From Spartobacteria bacterium (lineage in GTDB: Bacteria > Verrucomicrobiota > Verrucomicrobiia > Chthoniobacterales > Chthoniobacteraceae), in NCBI GenBank assembly GCA_043777315.1, contig JAYVPW010000150.1, positions 1 through 64,000 on the forward strand: a stretch of 64,000 nucleotides of DNA, given 5' to 3'. The stretch's first letter is position 1. Each line of letters starts with the position of its first letter. Of this stretch, positions 10,579-47,425 are shown in pieces. The notes beneath the pieces are model-generated. The model was not told where the DNA came from. It did not search any database and saw only the letters and a list, made by a program, of their open reading frames with translations. The translations under genes were made by a program, and so were the position numbers.

Positions 10579-10737
10579 CCGGGTAGCGCACTCGTCCCGA
10601 GTGCTGGTTTCGGCGTCCCGCCGAAACGAACTTTAAAAAAAACGTCCGCCGCTTGGACGTTCTCCAATATCGAACCGCTTCCTAAAGTTCGACGAGGCGG
10701 GACGCCTCGACCAGCGCTCGGGACGAGCGCGCTACCC
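10579..10737. repeat. MITE-like inverted-repeat element, copy a (~159 bp); ~56-nt arms CCGGGTAGCGC(A/G)CTCGTCCCGAG(T/C)GCTGGTTTCGGCGTCCCGCCGAAACGAACTTT with a variable centre
   Basis: copies at 12899-13060 and 47263-47425; sits in the convergent intergenic space between ald and the cyt-c gene. Confidence 0.8.
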
Positions 10738-12898: not shown

Positions 12899-13060
12899 CC
12901 GGGTAGCGCGCTCGTCTCGAGCGCTGGTTTCGGCGTCCCGCCGAAACGAACTTTTCTGACGCCGGCATTGTTCGGACGCGCTCCGATCTCCCCGCGTCTT
13001 AAAAAAAGTGCGTCGCGGCGGGACGCCGCGACCAGCGCTCGAGACGAGCGCGCTACCCGG
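12899..13060. repeat. MITE-like inverted-repeat element, copy b (~162 bp)
   Basis: perfect terminal arms CCGGGTAGCGCGCTCGTCTCGAGCGCTGG...; lies between the dehydrogenase-domain gene and the cyt-c gene. Confidence 0.8.
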
Positions 13061-13134
13061 ATCGGAGTTCCGCGCTCGCGCAAAAAAGGCTGCGCCCTCG
13101 CGGACGCAGCCTTTTTGAATTTACGCGCGTCGGA

Positions 13135-33059: not shown

Positions 33060-33320
33060 GTCACCTCCGTTCCCTCTCCCCCAACGCCAAACCGCCAGCC
33101 ATCCGCCACTGTTCTCCATCCCTCAGACCCTAGCCTCCGGCCGTCTCGCTCCGTGCTCCGCTTCCCGACGGAAGACGGCCAGCCGTTGCCCTCCGTTCTT
33201 CGTCTCCCGAGGTCGATCGCCATCCGTGCAGCGCCGTTCTCCACTTCCCGGCGTCGAGCCGCCAGCCATCCGCCTCCGTGCTCCACTTCCCAGCGGCAAA
33301 CCGCCAGCCGTGCGCCTGCC
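33060..33320. repeat. degenerate tandem repeat (~4 units of ~55-65 bp, core CCGCCAGCCATCCGCCnCCGTGCTCCACTTCCC)
   Basis: repeated CCGCCAGCC / GT(G/T)CTCCACTTCCC blocks; region 32730-33690 has no convincing ORF. Confidence 0.5.
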
Positions 33321-33689
33321 CGGCCCGCCCGCGGGTTCAGAGGGAGAGCGAGCTCGGCGACGGGCCAAGCACTTCAGCTCCCCATCGGCATCCTGACCTT
33401 GGCGTCGCGCCTCTCTGTTCGACTTCCATGAGCAAAGGAAGCCACTACCGAAGTCACGCGGCTTCCCCTGGGCTGGGTGGCGGGGCCTTCGGGCGAAGGC
33501 AGACGAAGCTGCCGGGTCGGTGAGGGCGAGCGGCGGGAGCGTGGGCGCGGGGTGACGGGGAGGAGCGGGGCGGTGAGTTTTTCGTAGAGGCGAAAGAGGT
33601 GTTCGACCCGCGCGCGGTCGCTGCTGCCGAGGCGCTGGAAAAGCTCCCGGTCGTCCCCGGCGTAGGCCTTCTCGACCGCGCGATCCAGC

Positions 33690-36287
33690 GTCGCATGCGC
33701 CTTTTGCGAGCTCCGCCGGCATGGAGAGCGGGTCGTAGAGATCGGCGAGCGTGCGCATCCCCCTCGGCGGCAGGTGCGGCTCCCGCGCCGCCAGCACCGC
33801 CCGAGCGGCGTTCTCCACGGCGGCCCGCTGGGCAGGCGTGGCGGAGTCGGGCCAGGGGAAGTTGTTGTAAACGAGCCCGGCGGAATAGCGGTAGTCGGAC
33901 TTCAACCGCCCGGCGAGTTGGCGCATCCATGCCATGTGCATGGAGGAAGTGAGGACGCCGAAATGCCACGCGGTAGCGCCCGGGGAGACAAAGACGAGAT
34001 TGTTCGAAATCACTTCAGCGCGCTGCAACGCCATCGGAATGTAACTGCGTCCTTCGGAAGAGACGCCCGGGACAAGAAGATAGGACTCATTTGGCTGTCG
34101 ATCTTCCCCAAACCGGGTGGGCGTGGTGGCTAGTCGGGTCGTAGTCAGACGATTACTGGCAAGCCGGTGTTGCCGCACTCTTTCGATGCGCTCCATGACT
34201 TTGGGCATCAGCCGAAGCACGCCGGGCGCGACATCCTTCAACCACAAGCACCATCGGTCGATGCCGTTGATGAATTCTTCCGATCCGAGAATTGGACGAA
34301 TGAACGGCGCGGCTCCGGGCTCCTCTGCAAGCAATGTGATGCGCTCCGAGGTAGTCAGCATCAAATGCCCGCCATCGTTCGGCATCGAGCCGAAGATCAA
34401 TGGGGGCACGTCGCAGAGGGGAGTAGTCCGTTTGGTGATGGTGACGTCTAGGCCTTCCGCAAGATACGGCGAGATGTTCGCCGCGACGGTGACGGTCGGC
34501 TCGGCGTGGTTTCCTTCGTAGTCGAAGATTTATTTGTTCGCGCCGCTCCCGACTCCAAAGCCGATGATGACGACATGGACGTGGGCTTTTCCGCGGGACT
34601 CGCTGGCCCACGGGAAGGTGCGGTGGGCGAAATGGATCTTGATGCCGTAGCGCTGGAAGAGGTCGCCCGAGAGGATGCCGACTTGCTCGCCTTGGCTGAT
34701 GGAGTTCGTGGAGACGAAGGCGACGGATGGAGTCCCGGGTAGGGTGGGCGTCCCGCCCGCCGGCCGAGGCGTCCCGCCTGGGCGCACTTCCCGGGTGCCG
34801 GAAGATCGTTCCGGCGAGACGCCGGAACCGGCGGGCGGGACGCCCACCCTACCCGGGACGGCGGTGCTCAGGTATTGGGCCGCGCGCCGATACCAGCAGG
34901 TGACGAAGTCGAGGACGCCAGCGCCTTTCACGCCCTCCCAGACGTGCGCCATATCGGCCTTTTGCTCGGCGTTCTGGTAGTGCTTGCCCACGAAGGGCGG
35001 GTTGCCGAGGACGTAGCTGCACTGGGCGGCGGGGAGGACGGTGTGCCAGTCGAGGCGGAGGGCGTTGGCGTGCCGAATGTCGGCGGTGCGGGTGAGGGGG
35101 AGGCCTTCGATGGGCGCGCCGAGGAGGGCGCTGGCGGCCTGGTTCATCTGGTGTTCCATGAGCCACATGGCGACTTCGGCGATGCGGACGGGCTATTCAT
35201 CGATCTCGATGCCGTGAAACTGGGCGACGCTGACGCCGAGGAAGAGGGAGCGGACGACCTTCATGATGTCGCGCTCGCTGGTGTACTGGGCACCCTGCTG
35301 GCGGCGGGCGCGGTCCTCCATGATGCCCTGGAAGAGGGAGCCGAAGACGGCGGGGGAGATGCGGGCCCACTGGAAGTCGCAGCAGTAGAGGAGGGAGTCG
35401 CGCATTTTCGCGTCGAAGACGGGCGTGCGGAGGCGCTCGGCGAAGAGCTTGCCATTGACGTAGGGGAAGGCGGCGATCTCGTCTTCGATGCCGCGCTGGC
35501 GCTCGGTCTCGCGGGTGTCGAGGATTTCAAAGAGGAAATTGAGCTGCTGGCCGAGGTCGGAGCCATCGGGCCGGGTGCGGGTGCGGATGAAGGCGGTGAA
35601 GGCTTCGGGGCCGAAGATGCCGTTGTCCTCGGCGAAGAGGCGGACGAGGAGGCGGACGAGGAGGCGCTCGATCTCGTGGCCGCCGCGCGGGTCATGGGCG
35701 CTGCCAAAGCCGCCGGTTTTCAGCGCATCGTGCAGGTCGCACATGCGGGCGCAGGCTTTTTCGTTGGCCTCGTCCTCGGGCTGGTAGCGGACGCGGGTCT
35801 GGCCGAGCATGAAGGCGAAGTGCCGGACGTGCTGGGGGAATTCGGCGAGGGTGAAGTGGTGTTTTTCGATCTGCCGCCCGGCAAAGAGGGGGAGGTCGAG
35901 CTGGTCGTCGGGCTCGAGGTCGTAGAGGACGAAGCGGGCGAAGTCGGAGACGAGGACGTAGCGGGGGAGGTCGTGGTGGAGGCCTGCGCGGGCGAGGTCT
36001 GCGATGTAGGTGAAGGCCTGGGTCTCGGCGAGGGCGAGGTCTTCGCCGAAGCTCTTGTGCTCGACGAGGAGGCGTCCTTTCCAAAGGAGATCGATGGCGG
36101 AGACGTGGCCTTTGAGGTTGGTGACGTTGTGCTCGAAGGCGGCGAGGGCGGAGCGGCGGAGGCCGAAGACGTCGAAGAAGGCGTTGTAGAAGGTCTGCTT
36201 TTCGGCGCGCTCGGAGCGGGCGCCGGTGTGCTCGCGGCTGAAGCGGATGGCGCGGTGCTGGATTTCGCTCCAGGAGAGATGGGGCAT
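33690..36287 (-). pseudogene. MmeI-like type IIG/IIL restriction-modification enzyme gene (nuclease/helical N-domain, N6-adenine MTase NPPF, TRD) broken by two in-frame stops (TAG at 35193-35195, TAA at 34530-34532) and degenerate beyond ~33690
   Basis: fragments 35193..36287, 34530..35168 and 33690..34532 are collinear and in one reading frame; motifs LSWSEIQ...EKQTFYNAFFDVFG, LGNPPFVGK, AFVSTNSISQGEQV, HFGVLTSSMHMAWMRQLAGRLKSDYRYSAGLVYNNFPWP, LADLYDPLSMPAEL. Confidence 0.65.
34732..34859. repeat. 128-bp perfect palindrome (32-bp arms GTCCCGGGTAGGGTGGGCGTCCCGCCCGCCGG / rc, 64-bp centre) inserted in frame (141 nt, ~47 aa) inside the MTase domain of the MmeI-like gene
   Basis: the insertion sits exactly between conserved ...AAQYL and AFVSTNSI... 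blocks; terminal CCCGGGTAG and internal GGCGTCCCGCC resemble the MITE-like family. Confidence 0.8.
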
Positions 36288-40464: not shown

Positions 40465-40834
40465 CGCCGTCGCGCACGCCTTTCGGTGCGCCACTTCATC
40501 GTTCCCAAGCTCCCGCTGGTTTCACGATTTTCATGTGGGAAAAGCGGCCTTTACGCGAGCAGCCTTGTTGCTGGCGAGACTTATCGGCCGAAGACACTCA
40601 ACTGAAACGACAAGAGATCCTCTGCCGCCGAAAAGCATCGCCCTTCCGGCGCGGGTCTCAAGGAACCACTGATCTAACCAACATGCCCGTTTCGATGGGG
40701 AGCGTACGGGTCCTCGCGTGTCGTGGCTGGTTCCCTCGCCGGGCACTCTTCCGAGGCGCGGATCATCGGCGAGGGCGCCGATGACAGCACGCGAAGGCGC
40801 GTGCGCTACCCGGCCCGATTAAATCAGTGGTTCC

Positions 40835-47262: not shown

Positions 47263-47425
47263 CCGGGTAGCGCATTCGTCCCGAGTGCTGGTTTCGGCGT
47301 CTCGCCGAAACGGACTTTCCTGACGCGTCAGCCTCCACGGACGCGTCTTGAGAATCAGACGTTTTTCAAAGTCCGTCGCGGCGGGACGCCGCGACCAGCA
47401 CTCGGGACGAGTGCGCTACCGGGAA
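47263..47425. repeat. MITE-like inverted-repeat element, copy c (~163 bp)
   Basis: arms CCGGGTAGCGCATTCGTCCCGAGTGCTGGTTTCGGCGTCTCGCCGAAACGGACTTT / rc. Confidence 0.8.

Follow-up and report, generated by a model that had tools for sequence, protein, structure and literature searches.

How does a long inverted repeat come to lie, in frame and free of stop codons, inside the catalytic domain of a restriction-modification (R-M) gene? The question is raised by a locus in a 64,000-nucleotide stretch of DNA (hereafter the window) from a Spartobacteria bacterium of the family Chthoniobacteraceae (assembly GCA_043777315.1, contig JAYVPW010000150.1, positions 1 to 64,000 of the forward strand), where an earlier, sequence-only reading had described a 128-bp perfect palindrome, likened to a MITE (a miniature transposable element with inverted repeats), within the methyltransferase (MTase) domain of an MmeI-like gene. 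Here we argue that the element, at 34732..34859, is very probably one copy of a REPIN, a non-autonomous pair of inverted repetitive extragenic palindromic (REP) hairpins tagged with GTAG and mobilised by a REP-associated tyrosine transposase (RAYT) of the Y1/HUH type, and that it sits in a gene which, to judge from its lesions, is dead.

Results

The inverted-repeat element is real and lies far beyond what chance would produce. A 32-nt arm, GTCCCGGGTAGGGTGGGCGTCCCGCCCGCCGG, occurs twice in inverted orientation, where 100 shuffles of the window gave an expectation of 0, and the limits 34732 and 34859 were recovered exactly, the inverted repeat setting a length of 128 bp. The left arm (34732..34763, forward strand) carries GTAG at 34739-34742 and, directly beside it at 34743-34761, the G+C-rich REP stem-loop GGTGGGCG-TCC-CGCCCGCC, which is the consensus of more than 100 copies; the right arm (34828..34859, reverse strand) is its exact reverse complement, with CTAC, that is GTAG on the other strand, at 34849-34852. 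The 64 nt between the arms are partly self-complementary and form two different hairpins, a left one at 34764..34782 (forward strand; CCGAGGCG-TCC-CGCCTGGG, one mismatch) and a right one at 34808..34828 (forward strand; GTTCCGGCG-AGA-CGCCGGAAC, 9 bp and perfect), the lower stem of the latter co-varying throughout the family. Each half of the element runs from CCGGGTAG through an 8-bp stem with a TCC loop to this second hairpin of 9-10 bp. Self-complementarity reaches 102 of the 128 positions and is perfect only in the outer 32 nt of each arm, so that the term perfect palindrome has to be given up. Folded as single-stranded DNA (ssDNA), the element attains -72.4 kcal/mol, compared with -41.6 +/- 3.2 in shuffles (z = -9.5), as a long stem bearing two or three small internal hairpins, and its G+C content is 79% against 66% for the host gene. 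An Rfam scan of both strands returned MIR1437 as the sole match, at 45 bits against a gathering threshold of 168, a match that reflects a generic long G+C-rich hairpin.

Comparison with homologues marks the element as a secondary insertion, apparently made without target-site duplication. Within the MmeI_Mtase domain (PF20473) it falls between two conserved blocks, NPPF and FVSTNS, in agreement with the placement in the sequence-only reading. These two motifs are separated by 53 aa in 102 of the 105 homologues possessing both, and by 95 aa in the window. An alignment of 14 homologues shows exactly 42 extra columns in the window, between ...AAxYIxGT and xIxVAFVSTNS. Where 141 nt and 47 aa had been proposed, the net inserted DNA amounts to 126 nt or 42 codons (34733..34858, with a boundary that may be off by 1 nt), and codon-level excision of this stretch leaves a 7-residue loop, YLSTAAPSVAFVSTNS, of the same length as that of homologue P0001 (...YIHGTRIPVAFVSTNS). 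The element is, as had been stated, read through without a stop, yielding a 42-aa segment rich in Gly, Pro and Arg. Its flanks (...GGATGGA before it, GGCGGTG... after it) hold no direct repeat, no target-site duplication emerges under boundaries of 122, 124, 126 or 128 bp, and the net gain is 126 nt for an element of 126-128 bp, a figure taken from aligned homologues in place of a genuine empty site. A metagenome search with the left-flank 20-mer for an empty or filled orthologous site gave four chance matches, in unrelated genes.

One might suppose from the in-frame reading, and from the Gly/Pro-rich, linker-like composition, that the segment is a native loop or linker specific to a lineage of the MmeI-like subfamily, or even that it arose in assembly. 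The comparison leaves this hardly credible. The check on homologues for the same extra segment, which the sequence-only reading had proposed, came out negative, since 102 of 105 lack it, including the closest (78% identity over the fragment); in many genomes the same DNA turns up between genes and within unrelated ones; and the G+C content departs from that of the gene.

What kind of insertion is it, then? In the literature, a GTAG tag with a G+C-rich stem-loop constitutes a GTAG REP, and two of them in inverted orientation a REPIN or 'HH dimer' (PMC3733652, PMC3116915), GTAG REPs and REPtrons both being described in the first of these reports. The element has precisely this build, with the GTAG tags at the outer ends of an inverted pair. 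Its relatives in other genomes extend over the full length at 75-84% identity, and the arm 23-mer CCGGGTAGGGTGGGCGTCCCGCC occurs in more than 117 stretches of a collection of species-representative genomes. The matches listed fall nearly all in metagenome-assembled genomes (MAGs) of Chthoniobacterales/Chthoniobacteraceae, a few being labelled Prosthecobacter, Akkermansiaceae or Terrimicrobiaceae; several MAGs have at least 5-20 matches, and 74 complete doublets of 110-225 bp are present among the matches listed. These doublets follow one plan: (T)CCGGGTAG, stem-loop 1 (the stem and TCC loop given above), stem-loop 2, GAACTT, a variable spacer, and the mirror image of the whole. Stem-loop 2 comprises 9-10 bp with a TCT or TCC loop and a conserved apex, GC(G/A)TC(T/C)(C/T)GC, and in its lower stem six pairs vary so freely that 100 copies contain 63 different 6-mers. 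The two strands of this lower stem nonetheless match, with 5.53 of 6 pairs formed inside one copy (in cis) as opposed to 2.83 of 6 between copies (in trans), and at several positions each of the four Watson-Crick pair types is represented.

Such covariation indicates that structure rather than sequence is maintained, and it could be taken, along with the very stable fold and the half-element that four genomes share at one position upstream of a thiC-like gene (see below), as a sign that the hairpin is kept for a role at the RNA or DNA level, as a terminator or as an mRNA-stability or supercoiling element, roles that are reported for REPs (PMC3733652). A transposase that requires the hairpin would, however, lead one to expect the same covariation just as much, the hairpin is not followed by a T-run, and a dead host gene offers nothing to regulate; we therefore consider a retained role of this kind very improbable.

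Besides the one copy of this family, the window contains three doublets and one singlet of sister families. The sister doublets (10579-10737, 12899-13062 and 47263-47425) keep to the same plan except in stem 1, which differs and is compensated, each half reading CCGGGTAG-CGCGCTCG-TCC-CGAGCGCT-GG-TTTCGGCG-TCC-CGCCGAAAC-GAACTTT, and they have in common with the element CCGGGTAG, GGCGTCCCGCC, the 8-bp stem with a TCC loop and a second hairpin of the form GGCG-TCY-CGCC. The kinship with a MITE-like family of the window that had been suspected is thus upheld at the level of termini and of stem-and-loop architecture. Eight occurrences of CCGGGTAG are found in the window where 0.47 are expected, and the sister arm reads CCGGGTAGCGCGCTCG... 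in this family. Of the doublets, that at 47263-47425 is flanked by proB and a dGTPase-like gene and the other two by putative open reading frames (ORFs) listed by the program, and the single GTAG REP stands near 40780-40815, downstream of a 1356-aa ORF.

Departures from the doublet plan were also seen. In four genomes a half-element, consisting of one REP arm and hairpin 2 with no partner arm (L002:771, L012:304, L085:225, L093:5853), occupies the same place, just upstream of a coding region (…EFVRSEVARGRAI…) that resembles thiC by eye, and may represent a remnant, either exapted or frozen. At L032:6290-6860 the arm is present as three direct copies spaced by 188-189 bp, a tandem of half-REPIN and flank rather than an inverted doublet. 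A full doublet is also present in a MAG labelled Alphaproteobacteria (L096, contig CAVRDF010000002.1) from a sample series shared with several Verrucomicrobiae MAGs, and this could be either a binning error or a case of horizontal spread.

The arms also point to a candidate transposase. At four loci (L047, L057, L068 and L102) an ORF is bracketed on both sides by the same arms, with 0-1 mismatch to the 23-mer, and by the inner hairpins, a layout that is the REPIN architecture with a RAYT ORF in place of the spacer. The ORF has the HUH (MPDHVHLLLQPW) and catalytic-tyrosine (YIxxNP) motifs, scores 28.4 bits against PF01797 (Y1_Tnp; cut-off 23), and has 244 database relatives, typically of about 217 aa, many of them named 'REP element-mobilizing transposase RayT' by the Joint Genome Institute (JGI). 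No RAYT was found in the 64-kb window by tblastn, which is unsurprising because RAYT is usually a single-copy gene.

These observations bear on the label MITE. In its strict sense, a deletion derivative of an insertion sequence with a DDE transposase, moved by cut-and-paste with target-site duplication, a MITE would account for the terminal inverted repeats, the small size, the lack of coding capacity of its own and the long hairpin. It would not account for flanks without a direct repeat and a net gain equal to the length of the element, nor for the GTAG and stem-loop at each end, which are the signature of a REP; and the sole gene found between identical arms is a Y1/HUH RAYT, with no DDE transposase seen at the 117 loci among the matches listed. 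A classical MITE is accordingly a very improbable identification, and of the earlier proposal it is the secondary, mobile insertion that stands and the name that falls.

The location of the RAYT gene is itself peculiar. A complete RAYT gene and its REP arms lie in frame inside the alanyl-tRNA synthetase gene alaS at L057:245-4105, L068:1077-4367 and L102:4373-6439 (all on the forward strand), as well as at L122:2927-5334 and in protein P0232. The site is identical in every case, after ...FEAEVxRL and before FAFRLYDxxGFPLDL, and in L057 and L068 the alaS ORFs are in other respects intact, running to full length. L122 and P0232 have differing REP families at this site (GSARFQRAASG... and GSAGASPAVS...), which suggests that the alaS-embedded RAYT is an old, vertically inherited arrangement. 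In a Chthoniobacteraceae MAG (L047:1-2000, forward strand), RAYT and arms are in frame in the threonyl-tRNA synthetase gene thrS, after ...AESMFPPMILEGD and before DRYYLKAMNCPHHH. In another clade (L123-L127) a RAYT homologue of 216 aa (3501-4151 in L123-L125) forms a gene of its own, flanked on either side by a T2SSE ATPase gene, with stop and start codons that overlap and the conserved synteny glmS-T2SSE-RAYT-T2SSE-T2SSF; the location of RAYT is therefore clade-specific and stable within a clade. Among the papers covered, a literature search on Chthoniobacter REPs or on RAYT inside tRNA-synthetase genes found nothing specific.

The host of the element is an MmeI-like Type IIL R-M pseudogene at 33374..36287 on the reverse strand, comprising MmeI_N, a helicase spacer, a truncated MTase, a target recognition domain (TRD) and a C-terminal domain. 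One reading frame is held from 36287 down to about 33701, and Pfam places MmeI_N and the helicase spacer at 35196-36287, MmeI_Mtase at 34533-35192, and the TRD with the C-terminal domain at 33700-34529. The middle fragment matches MmeI (PDB 5HR4) with E = 8e-47, and the closest database homologues of the gene are 67% identical. Although all domains of a functional Type IIL enzyme are recognisable, the ORF is broken three times on the reverse strand: by an in-frame TAG at 35193..35195, where homologues have Trp (EWP changed to E-stop-P); by an in-frame TAA at 34530..34532 (NKRIYDYE in homologues, NK-stop-IFDYE in the window); and by a +1 frameshift, an extra G at 33700..33703, past which (near 33701) the conserved C-terminus, AHATLDRAVEKAY...LFRLYEKLTAPLLP, resumes in another frame, the C-terminal domain doing so from 33700. 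A fourth lesion is an in-frame deletion of 222 nt (74 aa), with its junction at 35237..35248 on the same strand: the Pfam MTase match begins only at profile position 74, and while the catalytic motif IV (NPPF) is retained, motif I (DPACGCGNFL), which binds S-adenosylmethionine, falls within the deleted segment. Carrying four independent inactivating lesions, the gene is by its sequence dead, and the working enzyme implied by the sequence-only reading has to be abandoned. The 5' third of the pseudogene (35237-36287) has 87% nucleotide identity to an intact gene of GCA_031390545.1 (L119:6016-7075), but the neighbouring genes differ, and it would seem that the R-M gene is mobile or was exchanged recently. 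Directly downstream of the pseudogene end lies a degenerate tandem repeat of 42 bp (33149-33317; 4 copies, 68% matches).

Did the REPIN enter a working gene or a dead one? The preserved reading frame alone means little, because a 126-nt copy never shifts the frame and is open in four of the six frames, the chance of read-through being two in three; the closed phase is the one in which GTAG is read as TAG, in either orientation. The site is more informative. Inserts occur in the same 7-residue loop in three other homologues, two of them uninterrupted full-length genes: P0005, with all five domains, contains, 2-3 codons upstream, a REPIN of this family that is 105 nt long; the element in P0006, also full length, is palindromic but of another kind and measures about 230 nt; and P0015 has a third palindromic element with inner hairpins of the GCATCCTGC type. 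Given by gene coordinates, the three other MmeI-like genes with palindromic inserts are L118:159-3188 (+35 aa), L120:501-3560 (+77) and L121:501-3341 (+63), the insert lying between ...WYxKAAxYI and AFVSTNS in each. The loop is thus either a hotspot for insertion or permissive, and counting the window copy it has received four independent hits in a gene of about 960 codons; these four hits fit a selection filter, the alternative being a local target preference.

The structural position of this loop agrees with tolerance. In an AlphaFold2 model of P0005 (mean pLDDT, the predicted local distance difference test, 71.6), the insert at 560-593 has a pLDDT of 24-30 and no secondary structure, and it lies between a helix (545-557) and a strand (597-603), so that the REPIN insert of this intact homologue is predicted to be disordered. 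The idea that the insert maps to a surface loop is to this extent supported, by a model of medium confidence. The insertion site corresponds to residues 528/533 of MmeI in 5HR4, and from the topology of the class-I methyltransferase fold the loop would lie at the N-terminal end of the strand after motif IV, away from the cofactor and substrate loops.

Because the site is a loop with independent palindromic inserts in three other homologues, we lean, by a modest preference, towards a REPIN that entered while the gene still worked, decay following later. The same REPIN may also have landed in a gene already dead, in which case frame and lack of stops are coincidence and say nothing about what the enzyme tolerates. 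The four lesions, the high chance of read-through and the still perfect 32-nt arms, which suit a young insertion, would all sit well with this course of events, to which we assign a lesser but real chance. It has to explain, however, how the element came to fall in one 7-codon loop of a gene of ~2.9 kb in which three other homologues have palindromic inserts; for a random insertion the chance of hitting that loop is below 1%, unless the DNA there is a preferred target. An attempt to date the insertion relative to gene death by arm divergence was set aside, as ~1 substitution would be expected in 64 nt by our own estimate and the zero observed is uninformative.

The loop of the MmeI-like gene is not the only coding site of the family. 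Among the 74 doublets, 22 lie in stop-free frames of at least 100 codons on both sides, and Pfam verifies the host for about 15. The verified in-frame hosts include another MmeI-like gene (L006), mutS (L073), dnaE (L108) and alaS (L057, L102); in leuS, two copies share a site (L007, L087) and one is at another (L058), and uvrA has three copies in L037, one of whose sites is shared by L063. In verified copies the left arm always reads (S/P)GRVG(V/A)(P/S)PA, and the right arm AGGTPTLPG or GGRDAHPTR. Three ORFs in which the arm is read by way of the second open frame (RVGWASRPP; L042, L072, L045) had no Pfam support and were treated as spurious. Orthologous in-frame REPINs are found in leuS (L007:4257-4387 and L087:7277-7407) and in uvrA (L037:1615-1766 and L063:7165-7295), and because the orthologous position is occupied in two genomes for each gene, some intragenic copies are old and inherited with an essential gene.

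In-frame REP or REPIN inserts within genes are, moreover, an already known phenomenon, of which the copy in the window is an ordinary example; the statement that such insertions are rarely documented was too strong. According to Di Nocera et al. (2013, PMC3733652), intragenic GTAG REPs are most numerous in Opitutus terrae, also of the Verrucomicrobia, where they lie in uvrA, helicases and ligase and encode peptides such as GTGVPPV, GRDARAT and TGGTPVP, and the in-frame palindromic inserts of Rickettsia genes, the Rickettsia palindromic elements (RPE), provide a further precedent (PMC3184786).

Discussion

The observations can be assembled into the following scheme. By analogy with IS200/IS605 and with TnpA-REP of E. 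coli, RAYT would recognise GTAG and the folded hairpin on ssDNA, cut, and rejoin the element elsewhere with no duplication. One REPIN copy would in this way have added 126 nt to the loop between the helix and the AFVSTNS strand of the MTase domain. Insertions into genes would persist only if their length is a multiple of 3, if they are read in a stop-free, Gly/Pro-rich frame and if they fall in a permissive surface loop, and such a filter would explain both the frame and the site, making an insertion most likely while the gene was functional. The change of Trp to TAG, the second nonsense codon, the deletion of motif I and the frameshift would then have come later. For the enzyme the element presumably has no function.

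Several points weigh against this account. The exact ends of the element and the absence of a 1-2-nt duplication rest on homologues 59-78% identical, no empty orthologous site having been found, and the model of P0005 is only of moderate quality. Given the chance read-through, the insertion may also have come after the death of the gene, and perfectly matching arms would fit a recent insertion as well. The 64-kb window holds one copy of the family and no RAYT gene. Mobility driven by RAYT is argued by analogy, and in no family is the transposition of REPINs known to have been reconstituted in vivo.

How does the family compare with known systems? As in the REPIN/RAYT system of Pseudomonas fluorescens SBW25 and the bacterial interspersed mosaic elements (BIME) with TnpA-REP of E. 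coli (PMC3116915, PMC3337134), an inverted pair of REP hairpins forms one long hairpin, copies are dispersed and numerous, the same REPs enclose a Y1/HUH transposase gene, forming a REPtron, and target-site duplication is lacking. Unlike those systems, the present one belongs to the phylum Verrucomicrobiota, mainly Chthoniobacterales, and has a second, co-varying hairpin in each half, a large share of copies in frame within genes (about 15 of 74 verified) and, in some genomes, the RAYT itself inside alaS or thrS. Closer at hand are the GTAG-17/18/19 REPs of O. terrae (PMC3733652), which share the phylum, the GTAG tag, the dimers and the intragenic in-frame copies, whereas their stem sequences differ and their dimer spacers measure 1-2 bp, as against about 60-160 bp here. 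The O. terrae peptides resemble GRVGVPPAG, GRDAHPTR and GGTPTLP of the present family, a sequence relatedness that we infer from these peptides only.

The RPE of Rickettsia (Ogata et al. 2000, as cited in PMC3733652 and PMC3184786) are likewise palindromic in-frame inserts, encoding peptides of ~30-50 aa in surface loops of proteins that survive; they belong to another clade, however, are unrelated in sequence, and RPE-4 and RPE-6 are tagged with CGTC, repeats with this tag having no reported association with RAYT. Bacterial MITEs such as Nezha, RUP, NEMIS/Correia and ERIC share the small size, the terminal inverted repeats, the hairpin formation and the occasional fusion to an ORF, but they descend from DDE insertion sequences and duplicate their target site, and the element does neither. 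The host gene, finally, has the five-domain architecture of MmeI (5HR4), to which its fragment aligns at 418-528 and 533-590, but differs from it as a pseudogene without motif I, with two stops and a frameshift, and with 42 extra residues between MmeI 528 and 533.

For annotation this means that the locus should be labelled a REPIN-interrupted MmeI-like pseudogene rather than a new variant of the enzyme, and that the many segments of the kind 'GRVGVPPAG...GGTPTLPG' in proteins of Verrucomicrobiota should be recognised as derived from REPINs. The family constitutes a well-populated natural data set of ~40-aa insertions tolerated in MmeI-like enzymes, aminoacyl-tRNA synthetases, UvrA, MutS and DnaE, and such tolerated insertions mark permissive loops, useful for protein engineering. 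The more unusual material lies in the RAYT in frame in alaS and thrS and in the repeated use of the MmeI loop by palindromic elements.

One could speculate further that the REP/RAYT system of Verrucomicrobia is specialised for life inside proteins, with genes as regular, heritable harbours and not rare accidents. We put this forward as a tentative idea, which we hold to be doubtful as it stands. It draws on the presence of RAYT and arms at one conserved alaS site in at least five lineages, with three REP families, and in thrS in another lineage; on the orthologous, in-frame placement of REPINs in the leuS and the uvrA of different genomes; and on the single peptide frame of all verified intragenic copies although a second frame is open. 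If it were true, the helix-to-strand loop of the MmeI-like gene, hit four times, would be one such harbour, and embedding in essential genes would amount to an addiction-like mechanism by which the transposase is retained. Irrespective of this idea, the family extends the biology of REPINs and RAYTs, studied almost only in Gammaproteobacteria, to another phylum.

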